A stretch of DNA of 64,000 bases from the IMG/VR virus record IMGVR_UViG_3300037067_012889, positions 96,001-160,000 of that record. One strand, written 5' to 3'. Positions within the stretch are counted from its first letter, which is position 1, and the number at the start of each line of letters is the position of its first letter. The translations under genes and the position numbers were made by a program. Below are positions 51,445-64,000 of this stretch, piece after piece. The stretch is from a virus. Its lineage: Duplodnaviria; Caudoviricetes. The notes beneath the pieces are model-generated. The model was not told the DNA's origin, made no database searches, and saw only the letters and a list, made by a program, of their open reading frames with translations.

Positions 51445-52559
51445 TATTCTCGTTCTGGTTCTTGGGCTGGTGGCGCATACTTACCAGTGATTTGGTCTAC
51501 CAATCCAGAAATCTCCTTCTGGTGGTCGCCTAATTCTTTTGCATGCTGCTTTGCGGCATCAAGCTCAAGTTTTTTGGCATTTGGTGATTTGCCAAGTGCC
51601 ACAGACCAAAGAGCCGCCATGGTCTCTTCAAATACCTTCTTATCCGATAATGTCATGGGCTCAACTCGCCATTTCTCATCTCCACTCTTACCCTTGAAGA
51701 CGATTACATGCGAGCCGGGCTCTGCAACATGCCATGTAACTCCCGCTTTTTTCAATGCATCTTTAAGCGTAATTCCAGATTTTGTTTTGGCACTAAGTGC
51801 TTGCTCCAACATTTCAACGCCAACTTTTGGTTGAGCGGCACCATCAGGGACAGCGATACCTTTTAAAGCTTCGTTTAAGCTCTTATTTAATAGCACTTTA
51901 CGATCTTCATAGAAACGGTCTTTAGCACGTGGTGGCTCGTTTTCGTCCGGCTCCCACTCAGTTTTCCGGCCAGTACCGATCCATCCACCGGCTAATTTAT
52001 CATAACCGCGCTCTGTCGCCTCAGCTTCCTGCGATTTTTCGAACAACGCGCGAACGGCCTTGCCAAATTCTTTATGATCTCGAAATGCCCTCTTGGCGGC
52101 ATCAAAATTGAACCATTCATTTTGAGCTTGCTGCTCGACTTGATCTGGTCGACTGATATGGCCGACTCGTAGGACGCGCTCAAGACCAGATCTAATAATA
52201 TCTGACGTATCGCCCTCAAAAGCCTCATTAAGGTTACGATAGAATCTACCAAATTTACTATCCATAGAGTGAACAACTGACGATATATTGATTTTTGGAT
52301 TTGACGACATAATTACCAGTGTTCCAGATGAAATATTCCTAGATTCAACAATAATATCGTTTACTACCGCAATCTTTCGCAGTTCTTCGAATATTCCCAT
52401 TAATGGTCGTGTCGACAACACAACTCGCAAATTATCTTCACTGATCAGTAATTCTGTATCAATAGCGGCGTCATAGCACGACTGATTAAAATATTTATGT
52501 ACCGTATAAAGTTTATCCACAATCAGCTCCTTGGCGGTATCAGATGATGTACTTAACAT
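51444..52559 (-). CDS. Charged hypothetical protein, possible head-associated protein (start uncertain)
   Basis: Long ORF with LNE motifs. Confidence 0.6.
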   Translation of the reverse strand: MLSTSSDTAKELIVDKLYTVHKYFNQSCYDAAIDTELLISEDNLRVVLSTRPLMGIFEELRKIAVVNDIIVESRNISSGTLVIMSSNPKINISSVVHSMDSKFGRFYRNLNEAFEGDTSDIIRSGLERVLRVGHISRPDQVEQQAQNEWFNFDAAKRAFRDHKEFGKAVRALFEKSQEAEATERGYDKLAGGWIGTGRKTEWEPDENEPPRAKDRFYEDRKVLLNKSLNEALKGIAVPDGAAQPKVGVEMLEQALSAKTKSGITLKDALKKAGVTWHVAEPGSHVIVFKGKSGDEKWRVEPMTLSDKKVFEETMAALWSVALGKSPNAKKLELDAAKQHAKELGDHQKEISGLVDQITGKYAPPAQEPERE

Positions 52560-52578
52560 CCTGAGTATCTTTGACAAT

Positions 52579-53205
52579 ATGATACATTATTTAATTGGAA
52601 TCTTAACCGGCTGGAGAATGGCGTCGCGTAGAGCAAATTGTCTTCGTACATGGTTGCCTGAATGCGATCTATTAAATATACCAGCAGTTTTTGCATTCGG
52701 TTCAAAAGACCTACTAGCACCAGAGCTCTATGGTCGTGCATTATTATTACCATGTCCAGATACATACGAAGAATTACCACAACGAACAAGATGGTTATGT
52801 AAATGGGCGTTGGGCCGTGACGATTGGGATTATTTATTAAAGTGTGATGATGACACTTACGTCTCTGCACTACGACTTTCAGAATATCAACCAAAAGGAG
52901 AGTATGTCGGATGTGACTATGGATCGTTTTGTTCTGGTGGAGCTGGTTATTTGATATCACGAAAATGCGTTGAAATCATAGCTGATAATATGCTAGCTAC
53001 ACGCGGAGCCGAGGATGTTATTGTCGGTAAGACTTTACACTCTCATGGTGTACAATTAACACACGATCCACGATTTATATCATATGGTAGCGATTCATTA
53101 CGACCATCTACTGGGAATGATTTTATAACTGCACATAGAATATCAGATAACACATTAGATATTATCGATAAAGAAATAGGCATTAGATCAAGATTTCACA
53201 TCTAG
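52579..53205 (+). CDS. GT31 (Fringe/beta-1,3-glycosyltransferase-like) glycosyltransferase
   Basis: YEELP..T, LLKCDDDTYV, SGGAGYLIS, EDVIVG, TAH. Confidence 0.85.
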   Translation: MIHYLIGILTGWRMASRRANCLRTWLPECDLLNIPAVFAFGSKDLLAPELYGRALLLPCPDTYEELPQRTRWLCKWALGRDDWDYLLKCDDDTYVSALRLSEYQPKGEYVGCDYGSFCSGGAGYLISRKCVEIIADNMLATRGAEDVIVGKTLHSHGVQLTHDPRFISYGSDSLRPSTGNDFITAHRISDNTLDIIDKEIGIRSRFHI

Positions 53206-55077: not shown

Positions 55078-55617
55078 ATGGATTCTCTATACATACGTGG
55101 AAAATTCGCTGTCGAGCATTGGTATCGTGGAAAACTGATTGGGTTACATCCATGTCATAACGATACCACGAACGAGGGCAAAAACAGATTTCTAAATATT
55201 AGTTTTCATAAATATACTGCTATTACAAGCTGGTATATGAGTCTCATTGACAATGTTGGATATACTGCAGTAGCTGCAACAGACACATATGCAAATATCG
55301 GATTGGCTGGCAATACTTGGTCTGAATTCGCCTCATACACCGACACAAATAATGGCGAGAACGCTACGACAAGACCACTTTGGATAACAAGCCCGGCATC
55401 TGGTCCATCTATCGCAAACGCTACTAAGATATTGTTTACTTCAACTGCCATAGGTGTCGTCAGGGGCATCTTTGTAGTTGGCGGATCAGCAAATGCACAA
55501 CTCAAGAGTGATAATTCGTCTAGCAATAGCATCATGTGGGCAACTGCATTATTTGATTTACCTTTTGCCATGTTTGTTGGTAGCATATTAAAAGCGACAT
55601 ACACGATCAACGCGTGA
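55078..55617 (+). CDS. Virion protein, paralogue A of 61265..61795 (likely start MDSLYIRG)
   Basis: GKFAVEHW.RGKL, NEGK, LIDN, WSEF, TRP.W, G.FVVGG, LK.TYT. Confidence 0.75.
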   Translation: MDSLYIRGKFAVEHWYRGKLIGLHPCHNDTTNEGKNRFLNISFHKYTAITSWYMSLIDNVGYTAVAATDTYANIGLAGNTWSEFASYTDTNNGENATTRPLWITSPASGPSIANATKILFTSTAIGVVRGIFVVGGSANAQLKSDNSSSNSIMWATALFDLPFAMFVGSILKATYTINA

Positions 55618-55624
55618 GGTAGTT

Positions 55625-56623
55625 ATGTCTTTACTTTGGGTTGACGGATTTGAAGGATATGGCCCGAGCGGCGATCCAACTACCTTATTGGGATATCGTG
55701 GATATGGAACTAGTCAAACTAATCATTCGTCTATAACTACAGGACGCATAACGGGATATTGCATATCTGCTAATGATATTTATAGCCCAGGATTCTCAAC
55801 ACCATCTTTAACAATTAACCCAACATTGATTGCCGGTATTGCTTTTAAACTAAATAATGGCTATATCACAATACAGTTCATGGATAATACCATAAATGGT
55901 ATAGGCGTCACAATCAATCAGACTTCGATAGTGATAAAATTAGGTACTACAACCATTAGTACCACCAGCCTAACATTGACGACACTCACCTGGTTTTATG
56001 CCGAGGTAAAAGTATTTTGTCACGCTACTGCCGGAACTGTTGAAGTGCGTTTAAATGGCTCGACGATTGTATCATTGACAGGCATAAATACTAAAAACAG
56101 TTATGACGATTACAACAATGTCATCTATACAGAATTACACTATGCATGGTTGGACGACTACTACATTTGCGATGGTTCTGGTTTGACTGTAAATGATTTT
56201 CAGGGATTTTGCAGGGTAGTAGGTTTGTTGCCTAATGCTGATACATTAACAGAACAATGGTCGACGAGTACTGGTACAGATCATTATGCATTAGTAGATG
56301 AGAATCCGCCAAATACAACCGATTATGTTTATAGTGGCACACAAGGCCAAACAGACTTATACATATATCCACCATTGCCTGCTGCTATTGGTCCAATCAT
56401 AGGACTACAAGTTGCTACACAATCCAAAGTATTTTCCGGAACCGGTGCAATTGTAGAAGCACCAATCACATCATATGGCGTTACTGATGCAGGCACAGAT
56501 GCAATAGTTAAAAGTACGACGTACTCTGATATGCGACGTATAAGCATAACAGATCCGAGTACAGGATTGCCATGGACCGCAGCGGGATTATCAGCAGCAC
56601 AAATAGGCATAAAGGTGATGTAA
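55625..56623 (+). CDS. Lectin/ConA-like virion protein, paralogue 1
   Basis: LLWVDGFEG; WFY.EVKV.CH.T.GTVEVR.NG; DD.Y.CDGSG; DP.TGLPWT...AQIGIKVM. Confidence 0.8.
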   Translation: MSLLWVDGFEGYGPSGDPTTLLGYRGYGTSQTNHSSITTGRITGYCISANDIYSPGFSTPSLTINPTLIAGIAFKLNNGYITIQFMDNTINGIGVTINQTSIVIKLGTTTISTTSLTLTTLTWFYAEVKVFCHATAGTVEVRLNGSTIVSLTGINTKNSYDDYNNVIYTELHYAWLDDYYICDGSGLTVNDFQGFCRVVGLLPNADTLTEQWSTSTGTDHYALVDENPPNTTDYVYSGTQGQTDLYIYPPLPAAIGPIIGLQVATQSKVFSGTGAIVEAPITSYGVTDAGTDAIVKSTTYSDMRRISITDPSTGLPWTAAGLSAAQIGIKVM

Positions 56624-56625
56624 AT

Positions 56626-57639
56626 ATGGCCTTACTTTGGATTGACGGGTTCGAAGGATATGGTGCAAGTAGTAATCCTACAACCATATCTGCACGCTAC
56701 CCATATTCCGGAAGTCTAGATCATTCAACGATTATGCCAGGGCGTATTACTGGATATAGTTGGGGAGCGACGGCTAACTATAGCCCATATATTTCTACAC
56801 CAGTTTTAACAACTAATCCAACACTGATATCGGGTTGTGCCTTTTTATTCACTACAGTTGGAAGTTATACTATATTGTCTTTTTATGACAATGCGACATT
56901 AGGTATAAATGTAACATTTACATCGACAGCCCCAAATTCTACAATCGTGGTAAAACTTGGGGCGGCTACACTTGCTACTTATACTAATTTTTTACTTGCA
57001 ACATATACATGGTTTTATGTTGAAATGAAAGTGTTTTGCCATGCCACGAGCGGCACCGTTGAAATTAAACTCAATGGCACAACTGTTATAACATTAACCG
57101 GTATCAATACTAAAGCGGGTTCTGATTCATATCATACTGCTGCCAATATCGCTTTGTGGTATGGATATGTTGATGATTTTTATGTCTGCGATGGTTCTGG
57201 ATCGGCACAAAATGATTTTCTTGGTACGTGCAGAGTACTGGGCATTTTCCCAAACGCAGACACAGATGTAGAGCAATGGACACCAAGTACAATCGGAGCA
57301 CATTATCAACTGGTCGATGAAAACCCGCCAAATACGAGTGATTACGTAGAGAGCCCAACACAAGGACAGATCGATTTATATAGATATCCTAGCTTAATCG
57401 GTTCCGGCACAATTATAGGATTACAAGTAAGTACAACAGTCGAAATAGCTACAGGGACGTCTATGGTCATAGAGGCACCGATCATATCGCATGGTGTCAC
57501 AGACTTAGGACCAGACACAACAGTGACCGGTGCTACATATGTAGATGTACGACATGTAAGCACAACAGATCCATATACTGGACTGCCGTGGACAGTAGCA
57601 AACTTGGCAGCAGCACAAATAGGAATAAGGGTAATGTAA
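56626..57639 (+). CDS. Lectin/ConA-like virion protein, paralogue 2
   Basis: Same motifs; real start MALLWIDG at 56626. Confidence 0.8.
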   Translation: MALLWIDGFEGYGASSNPTTISARYPYSGSLDHSTIMPGRITGYSWGATANYSPYISTPVLTTNPTLISGCAFLFTTVGSYTILSFYDNATLGINVTFTSTAPNSTIVVKLGAATLATYTNFLLATYTWFYVEMKVFCHATSGTVEIKLNGTTVITLTGINTKAGSDSYHTAANIALWYGYVDDFYVCDGSGSAQNDFLGTCRVLGIFPNADTDVEQWTPSTIGAHYQLVDENPPNTSDYVESPTQGQIDLYRYPSLIGSGTIIGLQVSTTVEIATGTSMVIEAPIISHGVTDLGPDTTVTGATYVDVRHVSTTDPYTGLPWTVANLAAAQIGIRVM

Positions 57640-58664
57640 TGGCTCTACTTTGGATCGACGGATTTGATGGATATGCAGTTAGTGGTGGAAATCCATCGGC
57701 TGCGATGGCATTACGATATGGATCTATTGGAGGATCGAGCTATTTCGGTATTTTCGCCGGTCACGTTAGTGGTTATGCTGTAGGAGTAAGCAATGGACTC
57801 TCGGACGTCTATTTCGTAACGCCATCGTTAACAACCAATCCGACATTAATAGCAGGATGTGCTTTTTATTTCACAAGTACTGGCTCTACTGCATTGATAC
57901 GATTTTACGACAATGCGGCCAATGGAATATACGTTTATATGTCTCCGACAGTACCTTCGACCATATCGATAAAATCTTCTACCGATGCAGTATTAGCTAC
58001 TTATACTAATTTCTTGCTCGCACTAAACACATGGTATTATGTTGAAGTTAAAACATATTGTCATGCAACTGCCGGAACTGTCGAAGTACGTGTAAACGGT
58101 GTGACTGTTTTGACATTGACAGGAGCTAATACGAAGGCTGGTGTCGATAATTGGAATACTGCTATTATGTTCGACGGAATTAAAAACGTTTATTTCGACG
58201 ATGTCTATGTTTGCGATGGTTCTGGTTCAACACTAAATGATTTCCTAGGACTTTGCAGAGTTTTTGGATTGTTTCCAAATTCCGACACAGCCACAGAACA
58301 ATGGACACCGAGCGTTGCAGGACCACACTATGCACTAGTTGACGAGAATCCACCAAACACAACTGATTATGTATCGACCAACGTACAAGCAGCTACAGAT
58401 CTATACAAATATCCAAGCCTACTTGGTACAGCGACGGTCCTAGGAGTGCAGGTAAGTACGCAAATGATGTTGTCGTCAGGTGTGTGTGCTATTGTAGAAT
58501 CGCCAATAGTGTCAAATGGCGTCACCGAGACAGGACCAGACACAAATTTTTCAAGTGCTACGTATCTCGATGTACGACATATAAGCACAACAGATCCAAA
58601 TACTGGACTACCATGGACGATATCAAACTTAGCAGCAGCAGAAATTGGGATAAAGGTGATGTAG
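57639..58664 (+). CDS. Lectin/ConA-like virion protein, paralogue 3
   Basis: Same motifs; TAATG coupling at 57637-57641. Confidence 0.8.
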   Translation: MALLWIDGFDGYAVSGGNPSAAMALRYGSIGGSSYFGIFAGHVSGYAVGVSNGLSDVYFVTPSLTTNPTLIAGCAFYFTSTGSTALIRFYDNAANGIYVYMSPTVPSTISIKSSTDAVLATYTNFLLALNTWYYVEVKTYCHATAGTVEVRVNGVTVLTLTGANTKAGVDNWNTAIMFDGIKNVYFDDVYVCDGSGSTLNDFLGLCRVFGLFPNSDTATEQWTPSVAGPHYALVDENPPNTTDYVSTNVQAATDLYKYPSLLGTATVLGVQVSTQMMLSSGVCAIVESPIVSNGVTETGPDTNFSSATYLDVRHISTTDPNTGLPWTISNLAAAEIGIKVM

Positions 58665-58665
58665 T

Positions 58666-60084
58666 ATGGCTGGTACAGCACGCGTATCGCGACAAATAGT
58701 TGAAGTTCTAACGACAAGCAATCTTTTGCCGCCATATACGTATGGAACGATTAAAGCAACAAGGCAAATGATAGATGTCCTGTTGTTAGATGGCACTGCT
58801 CTACCTCCATACACATATGCTACGATATACGTAACAAGACAAATTGTTGAAGTTTTGACTTGGCAAGACTATTATAATGCCAGTGCATCTAATACTTTAA
58901 GTATAACACAGACACTTAATGCTTTCGCGAATACAACGCCACCAACATTTTCAAAAGCACTCATATCTAAATCGAATGCAATAGAACAAATGCCAAACGG
59001 TGACATAATAAACCACGGAGATTTTCCAATATGGACTACAAATAGCTCATCTTGGACGCAAACAAGGCAAGCCTTTTGTGCAAGAGTCGAAGCAAACGCA
59101 GCATGTTTTAATCAAGATACCATTACATTTGGAAGTCTCGGGACTACTACGAAATGCTTGGGAAGTGTTTTGGCTCCAAATGGATGCATTTATGGTCCAC
59201 CACGTACAAGCACATCAATTCTAAAAATCGACACCACAACAGATGCAATTACAACTTTTGGCAGTTTTGGTTCTGGTGCAGATAAATGGGGTGGTGCCGT
59301 CTTAGCTCCCAATGGATACATATATTGCATACCAAATACGATTACGACGATTTTAAAAATTGATCCGGCAACAGATACTACAACCACATTTTCAAGTGGT
59401 TGCACTGGCTCTGCAGATTTTAGCGGCGGCGTTGTTGCACCGAATGGATGCATCTATTGTGCACCATGGAGCTATACTGCCGTCTTAAAAATTGATCCAA
59501 CAACAGATACAGTGACAACATTTGGAGCAGCGGCCGTTGGAGCCGGTACTGTTAAATGGCAATCTGCCGTTCTTGCCCCAAATGGTATGATTTATTGCAT
59601 GGCTGTAAATAGTACAGCAATCTTGAAAATCGATCCAACAACAGATACGGCTACAACATTTGGTAGCGTTGGTGCTGGGACTTATAAATGGGCTGGCGGC
59701 ATATTAGCGCCGAATGGTATGATCTATGCAATACCACAAGACGCAACAACTATCTTGAAAATCGATCCAACAACAGACACAGCAACAACATTTGGCAGTC
59801 TGTCCGGCACAGCCAAATGGGTCGGCGGCGTCTTAGCTCCAAATGGTATGATTTATGGCATACCGTGGTCTAGTACTACAATATTAAAAATCGATCCAAC
59901 AACAGACATAGCAACAACGTTTGGAAGCTTATCTGGCTCTGCCAAATGGGCTGGCGGCACAGTAGCGCCAAATGGCATGATTTATGGCATACCGTGGTCT
60001 AGTGCTACGGTCTTAAAATTTGGTGGTATGTCGGACGATGCGCCACTTGATTACTGTTTGTCAAGATATTTCAATAGATATTAG
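58666..60084 (+). CDS. Seven-repeat beta-propeller protein with three N-terminal RQxxEVL repeats
   Basis: 7 x W.GGVLAPNG.IY..P...ILKIDP.TDT.TTFGS. Confidence 0.8.
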   Translation: MAGTARVSRQIVEVLTTSNLLPPYTYGTIKATRQMIDVLLLDGTALPPYTYATIYVTRQIVEVLTWQDYYNASASNTLSITQTLNAFANTTPPTFSKALISKSNAIEQMPNGDIINHGDFPIWTTNSSSWTQTRQAFCARVEANAACFNQDTITFGSLGTTTKCLGSVLAPNGCIYGPPRTSTSILKIDTTTDAITTFGSFGSGADKWGGAVLAPNGYIYCIPNTITTILKIDPATDTTTTFSSGCTGSADFSGGVVAPNGCIYCAPWSYTAVLKIDPTTDTVTTFGAAAVGAGTVKWQSAVLAPNGMIYCMAVNSTAILKIDPTTDTATTFGSVGAGTYKWAGGILAPNGMIYAIPQDATTILKIDPTTDTATTFGSLSGTAKWVGGVLAPNGMIYGIPWSSTTILKIDPTTDIATTFGSLSGSAKWAGGTVAPNGMIYGIPWSSATVLKFGGMSDDAPLDYCLSRYFNRY

Positions 60085-60108: not shown

Positions 60109-61254
60109 ATGGCTTACCAAAAACCACTGATTAAAAACACAAATTCGATTGGATCTCTGCCCAGTGGAGATTTATTAGCCCACGGCGATTTTCCCTTATG
60201 GTCTGCGAACAAATTGTCGTGGGAGCAAACACAATTAGCATTATGCACGAGGGCAAGTTTAGATCGTGCTTGTTCGCAGTTCACCACAACAATATTTGGT
60301 AGTTTTTCTGGTACGTCGAAATGGACGTGCGGTGTCTTAGCTCCTAACGGTTATATTTATAGTTGTCCATGTTACAGTGGCACAGTTTTAAAAATCGATC
60401 CGACAACAGATACTGGTACAACATTTGGTAGTCTTGGTGACACAACTACATTTAGATGGAGCGGTTGTGTCTTGGCACCAAATGGATACATCTACGGAGT
60501 TCCGAGTGCAAGCACTGAAATAGTAAAAATAGATCCTACGACAGATACAGTGACAACATTTGGAGCCCTGTCGTCTGATGCCGATAAGTGGTTTGGTTGC
60601 GTTTTGTCATCGACAGGTATAATTTACGGCATACCACAAACTGGCACCTCGATCTTAAGAATCGATCCTGCGACAGATACAGCTACCACATTCGGAAGCC
60701 TTGCAGTAGCTAATAACAAATGGTTAGGTGGTGTACTAGCTCCTAATGGATGTATTTATGGCGTTCCATATGCTAGTACGTCAGTTCTAAAAATCGATCC
60801 TAGTACAGATACAGCAACAACATTCGGAAGCTTTACAGGAGCAACAAAATGGCAGGGTGGCGTGTTAGCTCCTAATGGACGCATCTATTGTATTCCGACA
60901 GGTATCGGAACAATTTTGAAAATCGATCCAGCAACTGATACCGGCACGACATTTGGAAGCATATCCGGTACAGCACCGATGAATGTAGGTGGAGTCTTAG
61001 GTGCAGATGGTCTGATTTATGGGGTTCCTTTTAGTGGTACTGCACTTCTAAAAATAGATCCAACGATTGACGTGGCTGCTACTACTACATTTAGCAACTT
61101 AACTGGTTCTAGTAAATGGTATGGCGGAGTTTTGGCCACCAATGGATGTATATATTGCGTACCACACACAGGCACGACTGTTCTAAAGATTGGTACTGCA
61201 CTAGACGACGTACCGCTCAATCGGTGCCTGTCACGACATTTCAACAAACCTTAA
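60109..61254 (+). CDS. Seven-repeat beta-propeller protein (likely start MAYQKPLI)
   Basis: 7 repeats; GGAG RBS before ATG 60109. Confidence 0.8.
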   Translation: MAYQKPLIKNTNSIGSLPSGDLLAHGDFPLWSANKLSWEQTQLALCTRASLDRACSQFTTTIFGSFSGTSKWTCGVLAPNGYIYSCPCYSGTVLKIDPTTDTGTTFGSLGDTTTFRWSGCVLAPNGYIYGVPSASTEIVKIDPTTDTVTTFGALSSDADKWFGCVLSSTGIIYGIPQTGTSILRIDPATDTATTFGSLAVANNKWLGGVLAPNGCIYGVPYASTSVLKIDPSTDTATTFGSFTGATKWQGGVLAPNGRIYCIPTGIGTILKIDPATDTGTTFGSISGTAPMNVGGVLGADGLIYGVPFSGTALLKIDPTIDVAATTTFSNLTGSSKWYGGVLATNGCIYCVPHTGTTVLKIGTALDDVPLNRCLSRHFNKP

Positions 61255-61264
61255 TCATAGCACA

Positions 61265-61795
61265 ATGAATAACGAGACTTACATAAAACCGGCAGGTAGA
61301 TTCGATGTTGAACACTGGCGTAGAGGAAAGCTTCTTACTATACACCATGCACCAAATGGTGTTTCAAATGAAGGTAAGACTGGAATATTAAATGCCAACT
61401 TCTACAATGGCACTAATATTGGATATTGGTGGGTTGGTCTAATTGACAATACTGGTTTTGTGGCACTGGCCTCTACGGATTCTTATCAAAGCATTAATCA
61501 ACCAGGTAACGGATGGTCTGAATTTACAGGATATGTGGATGGCATAAATACTAGCACAAGGCCAACATGGAATAATAACGCAGCTTCGGCACAAACGATA
61601 ACAAATACAGTTAAAACGTTATTCACGATTACCGTCGCAGGCACAGTTGTTGGTGCATTCGTCGTTGGTGGCCCAACATCACAAATCAAAGGTGATTATT
61701 CTTCTGGTAATGTACTATGGGCGGATGCATTATTCCCGGTCACTGACGTATTACCGACAGATCAGTTAAAAATTACGTACACAATATTACTGTAA
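61265..61795 (+). CDS. Virion protein, paralogue B of 55078..55617
   Basis: Colinear motif identity. Confidence 0.75.
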   Translation: MNNETYIKPAGRFDVEHWRRGKLLTIHHAPNGVSNEGKTGILNANFYNGTNIGYWWVGLIDNTGFVALASTDSYQSINQPGNGWSEFTGYVDGINTSTRPTWNNNAASAQTITNTVKTLFTITVAGTVVGAFVVGGPTSQIKGDYSSGNVLWADALFPVTDVLPTDQLKITYTILL

Positions 61796-61806: not shown

Positions 61807-64000
61807 ATGACATATCAAAATCCATTAGTGTCAAAATCGGGCAGGATGCAAGTACTGTCAAACACAGAGATAATAAATCACGGAGACTTTCCACCATGGG
61901 CGACAAATCCGTATGGCCAGACGGCCGTAGCATACACTTCATCGATTTACTATAAAAAACTGATAACGGTCGATCACACTAAAATCGGCAGTACAGATAA
62001 TTTACGAATAGTAATCCCAATTGTAAATGACGCTGACTTGGGAGCACACGCTCAGCTAAATGGCTATGACATATTTCTCGTAGATGCAAATGGAAATTAT
62101 ATGCATCACGACATAATGAGTTACAGTGTTGTATCAGGGCTTGCGAATGGCAACATTGCAACATGTCTAGTCTCACCAAGCACATCAGTCGATACAACTT
62201 TCTATTTGTGTTACGGAATCGCTCAACAATTTTCACTTGCACATCCAAGCGGCGTATGGAACACATACCGATGGGTCTCGCATCTTGAAGAGGCATATTA
62301 TCCATATAAAGATGTCGCAAAAGGTTACAACACTGTAGGCGGAACATATCCAACGCAAGGGACTGGAAAAATCGGGAACGGCCAGACATTCAACGGCTCA
62401 TCTATGTATCTCGATTTTGGTTTACTTGTTGGATGTGCGATAGGAGATTATACTGCGTCTGCCTGGATTAAGCCAGCTGGGCTGGGAGCCGAACGACGTT
62501 TCATGTCTAATATGGGATATGGCAATTATAATGGCTCATTCGATTTCTTGTTAGATGGTTCGAATAAATTAACAATATTACATCAAAGCGGTTCAGCACA
62601 ATCGGTTTATAGGAGCACATCTACTAGCCTCTTCACAAACGGCGTATGGGCGAAGGTTGAAGTATCATGGGCGTCTCCGACTGGCGTACCAACATTATAT
62701 GTAAACGGTTCACCAGTTGCTGGTGCTCTAGATAGTGGCGTTGGCATGGTAACACCAAGATCGATACCAAGTTATGATATGCGAATCGGTTCTACTGGCG
62801 GTGGCACGATAACGACTTGGTGGAGTGGTATGGTAGACGAAGTCAGATTCGCCGACTACATCAAACCAGCAGCTCTAATTGCAACGGAATATACTTTCGA
62901 CACACAGACTTGCGTTACGGTGGGAGCAGAGACTAGTTCATCGTATCTACCACCAGCATATAGCAGCTGGCCACAAACAAGACAAGCTCTAACTTCACGT
63001 ATAGGGACCAATTTAGTTGCTTCCCAGCACTACATCTCATCTACTTTTACTAACGGTAGCCTCACATTAGACGCAAATAAATGGTCTGGTGGCGTCCTAG
63101 CTCCGAGTGGGTCGATTTATTGCGTGCCATATACTGCTACTACAATATTAAAAATCGATCCGACATTAGATACGGCGATTACTTTTGGAAGTCTCGCAGC
63201 AGATGCCACCAAATGGATTGGTGGCGTATTGGCTCCTAACGGATGCATCTATTGCATACCATATACTGCCACTACAATATTGAAAATAGATCCAACATCG
63301 GACACTACGACAACGTTCGGCAGTTTAGTCGGTGATACAAAATGGGTTGGTGGTGTTGTTGGTATGAATGGCATGATTTATGGAGTTCCACATAGTAGTA
63401 CGTCGATACTTAAAATAGACCCAACAACAGACACGGTTACAACATTCGGTGCTGTAGGGGCCGATACCTTAAAATGGCAAGGTGGAGTATTGGCCCCGAA
63501 CGGATGCATCTATTGTGCACCTTTTAATAATACTTATGCTCTAAAAATCGATCCATCAGCAGATACTTACACATTACTATTCGGTAGCCTATCAGGTACT
63601 AGCAAATGGATCGGTGCTGTTCTGGCTCCAAATGGATGTATTTATTGCATACCGTGCTCAAGTACAACCGTTCTAAAAGTCAATCCGTTTTCAGACACAT
63701 TTACAACATTTGGAAGCCTATCTGGTTCTCTAAAATGGAGTGGTGGCGTCTTGGCCCCGGACGGTATGATATATGGGATACCACAAAATTCTACTACAAT
63801 TCTAAAAATAGATCCAACAACAGACGTGGCCACAACTTTTGGCAGTGTTGGTTCTGCATCATCGAGCTGGCTTGGAGGTATCTTGGCTCAAAGCGGAGTA
63901 ATATATGGTGTTCCGCAGAGTTATAATTATGTTTTGAAAATCGGCACACCAGCTATTGATGTTACAACTGATTTCCCACTATCACGCCATTTCAACAAAT
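61807..64000 (+). CDS. DUF2341-like + LamG + seven-repeat beta-propeller protein, absent from the ORF track because its stop lies past the window edge
   Basis: Translated by hand: MTYQNPLV...HGDFPPW, YKKLITVDHTKI...NGYDIF...FYLCYG, GKIGNG..FNG...SAWIK...LYVNG...G.VDEVR, 7 propeller repeats, ends LSRHFNK. Confidence 0.85.
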   Translation, partial: MTYQNPLVSKSGRMQVLSNTEIINHGDFPPWATNPYGQTAVAYTSSIYYKKLITVDHTKIGSTDNLRIVIPIVNDADLGAHAQLNGYDIFLVDANGNYMHHDIMSYSVVSGLANGNIATCLVSPSTSVDTTFYLCYGIAQQFSLAHPSGVWNTYRWVSHLEEAYYPYKDVAKGYNTVGGTYPTQGTGKIGNGQTFNGSSMYLDFGLLVGCAIGDYTASAWIKPAGLGAERRFMSNMGYGNYNGSFDFLLDGSNKLTILHQSGSAQSVYRSTSTSLFTNGVWAKVEVSWASPTGVPTLYVNGSPVAGALDSGVGMVTPRSIPSYDMRIGSTGGGTITTWWSGMVDEVRFADYIKPAALIATEYTFDTQTCVTVGAETSSSYLPPAYSSWPQTRQALTSRIGTNLVASQHYISSTFTNGSLTLDANKWSGGVLAPSGSIYCVPYTATTILKIDPTLDTAITFGSLAADATKWIGGVLAPNGCIYCIPYTATTILKIDPTSDTTTTFGSLVGDTKWVGGVVGMNGMIYGVPHSSTSILKIDPTTDTVTTFGAVGADTLKWQGGVLAPNGCIYCAPFNNTYALKIDPSADTYTLLFGSLSGTSKWIGAVLAPNGCIYCIPCSSTTVLKVNPFSDTFTTFGSLSGSLKWSGGVLAPDGMIYGIPQNSTTILKIDPTTDVATTFGSVGSASSSWLGGILAQSGVIYGVPQSYNYVLKIGTPAIDVTTDFPLSRHFNK

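Follow-up and report, generated by a model that had tools for sequence, protein, structure and literature searches.

In chaperone-usher pili, an incomplete β-sandwich receives its missing strand from a second chain, and in the cellulosome a scaffoldin displays modules via cohesin and dockerin. Strand donation from another chain is also reported to complete the β-sandwich in TasA fibres (PMC9674648). The podophage A1002 carries a rope-and-bead fibre in which bead dimers of two kinds (gp40 and gp41), of 140-170 amino acids (aa), form augmented sheets along a rope, gp39 (PDB 44NX/26LA); the podophages GP4 (gp80, PDB 8JOU) and VP1 have such fibres as well (PMC13730344). Here we describe a locus from a virus of the Caudoviricetes (Duplodnaviria), IMG/VR record IMGVR_UViG_3300037067_012889, a record of 363,885 bp that includes a T4-type Gp23 capsid gene. 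The window analysed is the 64,000-nucleotide (nt) stretch at positions 96,001 to 160,000 of this record, and coordinates without a locus prefix refer to it. It contains three tandem genes for lectin-like proteins, termed heads A, B and C, followed by a gene for a scaffold protein with three short repeats. The heads are very likely exchangeable modules of a tail fibre, each docked on the scaffold by complementation with an interior strand, at sites that are probably promiscuous.

Truncated heads and a repeat-bearing scaffold

The three tandem paralogues are 51-58% identical and all terminate in ...AA(Q/E)IGI(K/R)VM followed by the stop codon. The scaffold gene starts 2 nt past the stop of head C. 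Its repeats, at residues 5-15, 29-39 and 54-64, are separated by LPPYTY linkers and followed by a propeller-type region that matches DUF6923/tachylectin. Scores in the list are those of a position-specific scoring matrix (PSSM).

55625..56623, + strand: head A, 332 aa, phrog_2448; ConA-type domain and jelly-roll without its last strand
56626..57639, + strand: head B, 337 aa
57639..58664, + strand: head C, 341 aa; residues 1-200 ConA/legume-lectin sandwich, residues 205-341 acceptor jelly-roll
58251..58661, + strand: acceptor domain of head C; gap between strands 209-212 and 268-275
58666..60084, + strand: scaffold, 472 aa; three putative donor strands, one rope-type motif, a segment common to the propeller paralogues, and propeller-type repeats
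58678..58710, + strand: putative donor strand 1, residues 5-15; 31.0 bits
58750..58782, + strand: putative donor strand 2, residues 29-39; 24.4 bits
58825..58857, + strand: putative donor strand 3, residues 54-64; 29 bits; modelled inside the acceptor domain of head C

A first-pass annotation of this DNA had described three coupled paralogues with a common abrupt end, followed by three LPPYTY-linked repeats before a propeller. The coordinates and searches of the whole 364-kb genome confirm tandem paralogues and peptide-repeat gene as a real feature. A profile search found exactly three such heads, and the PSSM, trained on the related loci surveyed below with this window included, found exactly three such peptides. 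The repeats score 31, 24 and 29 bits, against 9.7 bits for the highest-scoring site elsewhere among the 303,283 positions of the genome; the repeats are thus not due to chance. Applied to the other open reading frames (ORFs) of the related loci (569,136 residues), the PSSM gave four matches, three of which constitute a second scaffold.

The heads match phrog_2448, a family annotated as of unknown function, with E values of 1e-35 to 1e-37. The AlphaFold2 (AF2) model of head C, built from 112 sequences, comprises two domains and has a predicted local distance difference test score (pLDDT) of 96. Residues 1-200 form a ConA/legume-lectin sandwich that superposes on 3zr5 (Z 17.3, root-mean-square deviation (rmsd) 3.1, 174 residues aligned) and on the receptor-binding domain of TM4 gp23 (Z 16.0, rmsd 3.0, 176 aligned), and this fold makes glycan binding by the N-terminal domain likely. 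Identity between the paralogues is lowest in residues 13-60 (32%) and highest in the C-terminal domain (57-61%), as it is in a relative with nine head copies, a distribution that would suit a binding end free to vary and a mount under conservation. Sequence searches with the heads, the acceptor domain and the scaffold gave no relative of solved structure. Variant heads were also observed: a double-length head of 682 aa (L024:16275-18320) has an end like that of a truncated acceptor and is followed by its own three-repeat scaffold, and the heads of P0095 and L043/L120 carry an insertion of 90-125 aa in the acceptor domain and still end at the truncation point.

The missing jelly-roll strand

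The acceptor domain is a jelly-roll without one strand that its relatives carry in cis. A profile of this domain matches 23,458 clusters, cis and split forms together, and among the proteins retrieved about 248 domain matches end within 3 residues of the same truncation point. All 20 domain copies that run past this point carry a strand of the R-x-T-Q-x-x-V-E-V type; they belong to seven proteins, six of which are long multidomain proteins with peptidase, PKD or β-helix domains. The full-length phage homologue P0106, whose contig ends 39 nt beyond the gene, continues past the usual stop and ends in ARNSQTVVEVL, the same strand as the free repeats of locus L062. A word-index search for longer fused forms returned N-domain repeats only.

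The models agree with this comparison. In truncated head C (AF2, pLDDT 96), the conserved residues 205-213 have no strand partner, whereas in the model of the natural fusion (AF2, pLDDT 96) the equivalent first strand and the final strand are both formed. The completed domain resembles carbohydrate-binding modules (CBMs) and galactose-binding jelly-rolls with Z scores of 8-9 (best Z 9.4, rmsd 2.9, 121 aligned); no fold match rose above this general jelly-roll group, which does not demonstrate a new fold. The first-pass annotation had pointed to such a final cis strand in other phage proteins, had supposed that the subunits are left with an open gap, and had proposed looking for fused versions. 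The strand exists in the continuing copies, P0106 is such a fusion, and the C-terminal domain models as incomplete when truncated and as complete when fused.

The complex model suggested at the same time was obtained for the C-terminal domain of head C with repeat 3, and places the peptide in the gap. The predicted complex has an interaction prediction score from aligned errors (ipSAE) of 0.78, the best control reaching 0.01; at least 89% of contacts are the same between runs, and the pLDDT of the partner is at least 64. The mark applied to complexes was reached by 58 of 80 solved pairs and by 2 of 110 mismatched pairs, a benchmark that is roughly applicable since our own alignments were used. 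In the model, the scaffold segment 56-64 runs antiparallel to two strands of head C, 209-212 and 268-275, and pairs with each of them, so that the strand would lie in the interior of the sheet rather than add to its edge. The model supports filling of the acceptor gap by a strand from another chain.

The PSSM search found no donor motif inside the heads. Among the related loci the repeats are N-terminal, internal or C-terminal (Brevundimonas phages Fanboy and Bambus), or lie on mini-adaptors of 50-110 aa, and they thus appear to act as a portable tag. The mini-adaptors (L062:10010-10225, L063:10019-10177, L075:11042-11356 and L159-L170) consist of 2-6 donor repeats and, at the C-terminus, a short hydrophobic tail; the C-terminal tail of P0106 resembles it and is perhaps a shared virion anchor.

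The repeats might instead serve the structure of the scaffold itself, as a self-paired sheet or a trimeric β-helix, with heads that are complete alone or through oligomers and that bind elsewhere. Such an arrangement would suit the high confidence at which the truncated head models without a partner, and the few loci without donors. It would leave aside the resemblance of the repeat to the cis final strand, its specific placement in the gap of the model, the mini-adaptors that consist of little but repeats, and the lack of a free strand copy within the heads, and we find it scarcely credible.

Gene coupling and proposed loading of the sites

A gene bearing repeats follows 67 of 70 head clusters on viral contigs; among the other three clusters, there is one with internal repeats and one that lies behind a nine-repeat scaffold. 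In a set of metagenome loci that partly overlaps the viral one, the PSSM called repeats in 43 of 64, and many of the remaining 21 have divergent repeats or end inside another head. Heads and sites were counted in 51 non-redundant loci, with statistics that ignore kinship. Head number equals repeat number in 11 of them (6.9 expected by permutation, p 0.036), and the two numbers correlate weakly (rho 0.31, p 0.026). One head gene with three sites is the most frequent arrangement (17 loci), and at least two sites are present in 28 of the 30 loci with a single head. Close relatives among jumbo phages carry two three-site scaffolds (6 sites) together with either nine or four heads.

These counts bear on a strict one-to-one code, in which each repeat would be specific to one paralogue, the numbers would co-evolve, and the appendage would have a fixed A-B-C order. 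Equal counts do recur, 3:3 here and in L024, L030 and L060 and 4:4 in L047, and both the excess of equal loci and the correlation point the same way, albeit with kinship ignored. However, counts are unequal in 40 of the 51 loci, the close relatives stand at 9:6 and 4:6, there is little difference between repeats 1 and 3 of the window scaffold, and heads A, B and C have similar groove strands. We therefore reject number matching as a rule and hold the code to be very improbable. Scaffolds most often have three repeats, which makes it probable that the local 3:3 match is incidental. Because the sites are nearly identical and their number does not follow that of the heads, any head probably fits any site; loading would then be promiscuous and non-selective, giving fibres with mixed heads. 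The earlier proposal of donor-strand docking is supported by the model placement and the pairing of genes in 67 of 70 clusters; its expectation that gene number tracks repeat number is not borne out.

In the mechanism that we propose, each head would be made without the last strand of its C-terminal CBM-like jelly-roll, which would leave a groove between the first strand and a central strand. A scaffold repeat would insert in this groove as an antiparallel strand and complete the fold, one head per repeat. One scaffold chain would carry up to three heads, probably in mixed order, as well as its own propeller and possibly one bead dimer. The locus would then encode, for a T4-like jumbo phage, a cassette that makes a tail fibre or adhesin.

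Rope-and-bead homology, probable tail location and known systems

The following features lie beside the cassette or in its scaffold; the bead genes and the rope motif tie it to rope-and-bead fibres, a connection absent from the first-pass annotation.

55078..55617, + strand: bead gene 1, phrog_8123; its family is homologous to the fibre bead gp41 of A1002 and matches Pfam Gp80 weakly
58879..58917, + strand: single rope-type motif of the scaffold, residues 72-84; 17.3 bits; candidate bead-dimer site
60109..61254, + strand: propeller paralogue without donor strands and without rope motif
61265..61795, + strand: bead gene 2, phrog_8123
61807..64000, + strand: LamG and propeller paralogue, 732 aa, ending just outside the window; without donor strands and without rope motif

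A profile of the flanking-gene family (55078 and 61265) matches a 171-residue chain in PDB 26LA/44NX with an E value of 3.6e-12. We take this chain to be A1002 gp41 because entry and length agree with the published description (PMC13730344). In 57 of 67 loci the gene immediately upstream of the heads belongs to this family, and weak Pfam Gp80 matches occur in 7 of its 31 members. Siphophage-like scaffolds carry 4-26 copies of a second, rope motif behind the donor strands, at a spacing of 18-20 aa (716 motifs versus 21 in shuffled sequences). The scaffold of the window has exactly one such motif, to which a PSSM with this phage group left out of its training gives 17.3 bits; in loci that lack bead genes, the scaffolds scored have 0-1. 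No sequence match was found between the scaffold rope motifs and the solved ropes. The scaffold has probably descended from the rope of a rope-and-bead fibre, with one rope motif left and a propeller fused to it. The heads themselves were considered as beads of the GP4 gp80 type and rejected, with an hhalign probability of 0.3%, no hidden Markov model match and another fold class. Close jumbo relatives also have bead-family proteins that, at about 530 aa, are three times as long as usual (L023/L095:13882-15477, L024:12461-14089, L096:12527-14122).

The three propeller proteins have in common an N-terminal segment, KPL...HGDFP.W (58950-59130, 60109-60280 and 61807-61900), and a C-terminal LSR(Y/H)FN tail; the close relatives L095 and L096 have six or more such paralogues. 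The common segment may be a shared virion anchor through which the scaffold is attached. Two genes upstream of the cassette, ORF 52531-53205 has a CDDD motif and appears glycosyltransferase-like from its sequence.

Several observations weigh against our interpretation. The modelled complex consists of one site and one domain, not three heads together, and was built on our own alignments; the repeats could in addition pair among themselves. Truncated heads without a recognisable donor nearby or in the next gene occur in L055, L102, L160, L175 and L184, where the donors may lie elsewhere in the genome. Finally, hhalign comparison of the bead family with the GP4 gp80 alignment was not significant, so that the link to beads rests on A1002 gp41 and the weak Pfam matches.

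Strand complementation could also be real in a complex that is not a host-recognition fibre, such as a structure that decorates the capsid or the neck, or a glycan-active complex outside the virion. About 70 kb separate the cassette, which sits in a mixed set of genes, from the major capsid gene; lyases and hydrolases are found among ConA folds, and homologues occur in cellular contigs as well. Against this stand the tail-operon position in siphophage-like relatives and Chi-like phages, including a relative in which the tape measure and a J-like gene flank the cassette, and the bead homology to solved tail fibres. We judge a role outside the fibre unlikely. The cellular contigs with truncated heads include L186 and L203 (Bdellovibrio) and L188, L190 and L194 (Saccharibacteria), with donor-like repeats adjoining the heads in L186, L190 and L194. 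A large prophage-like group (L191-L258, mostly proteobacterial genomes) has one truncated head followed by a protein of 500-530 aa with several degenerate strand-like repeats at its N-terminus.

Four cultured Casjensviridae have four or five equally truncated phrog_2448 homologues after the J-like gene, followed by a repeat protein of 695-709 aa (Chi-like loci L173:6981-13289, L176:4611-11004, L177 and L178). In two of the four, this protein of about 700 aa has seven clear β-strand-like repeats of 25 aa with a V-x-Q-V pattern, which score below the PSSM threshold and are recognised by period and pattern only. Its relatives occur in 160 phage records. The 220-nm fibre of Chi/YSD1 has been assigned to YSD1_29 (PMC12264135, PMC9266447), which by position is the J-like protein. 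Speculatively, the Chi-like cassette might form or decorate the long tail fibre, with the repeat protein as a candidate for the fibre core. A broader view, that receptor display by non-selective, strand-deficient lectin heads is widespread and that the cassette of four heads and the 700-aa protein, not only the J-like protein, builds the long, curly fibre by which the flagellotropic Chi-like phages are marked, seems possible to us but doubtful. If it held, the virions of one phage would carry mixed receptor sets, and host range would change by adding head genes alone.

The proposed docking offers a mechanism for the large unannotated family phrog_2448, with a split that is traced from complete cis domains. 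It would give a phage a route to add or swap candidate receptor-binding heads with the fibre unaltered. A tag of 11 residues that completes a domain of 140 residues would also be a natural protein-coupling pair. The cultured carriers (Chi-like phages, Brevundimonas phages and Pam4) make the docking testable, including the composition of the Chi tail fibre.

Our literature search, outside which most subscription papers lay, found no description of the head family or of such docking; the Avs-1, R4C and A-1(L) papers describe other architectures. Strand donation is already known from pili and docking on a rope from three podophages, while the literature searched gave no case of a split jelly-roll completed in its interior by strands that a phage scaffold donates from tandem sites. 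The heads share with chaperone-usher pili and TasA an incomplete β-sandwich and, in the model, a strand supplied by another chain, and to this extent the likeness to pili drawn in the first-pass annotation holds in the predicted complex. The pilus subunits have an immunoglobulin fold and their own N-terminal donor, whereas here the fold is a jelly-roll and the donors stand in tandem on a separate scaffold, with none in the heads. There is no signal peptide, and a scan limited to ten neighbouring genes showed no chaperone or usher gene. Moreover, chaperone-usher and TasA subunits polymerise head to tail, and the product here would be a decorated chain. With the cellulosome the locus has in common repeated, probably non-selective scaffold sites that display variable glycan-directed modules; the cellulosome, however, docks two folded domains, where an 11-residue strand is predicted to complete a fold here. 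The Chi-like cassettes of PHROG 2448 have equally truncated heads followed by a repeat protein, and differ in repeats that fall under the PSSM threshold.

The rope-and-bead fibres resemble this locus in an extended chain with repeated β-strand docking sites for separately encoded subunits of more than one type. The solved beads are dimers of 140-170 aa, whereas the heads have 330-340 aa and two domains and lack detectable homology to gp80. Those fibres belong to podophages, while the present one would belong to a Gp23-type jumbo phage in which the rope is down to one motif. Beads join their rope in an augmented sheet; here, according to the model, the donor would supply the interior strand that the jelly-roll lacks and that relatives of this domain carry in cis.

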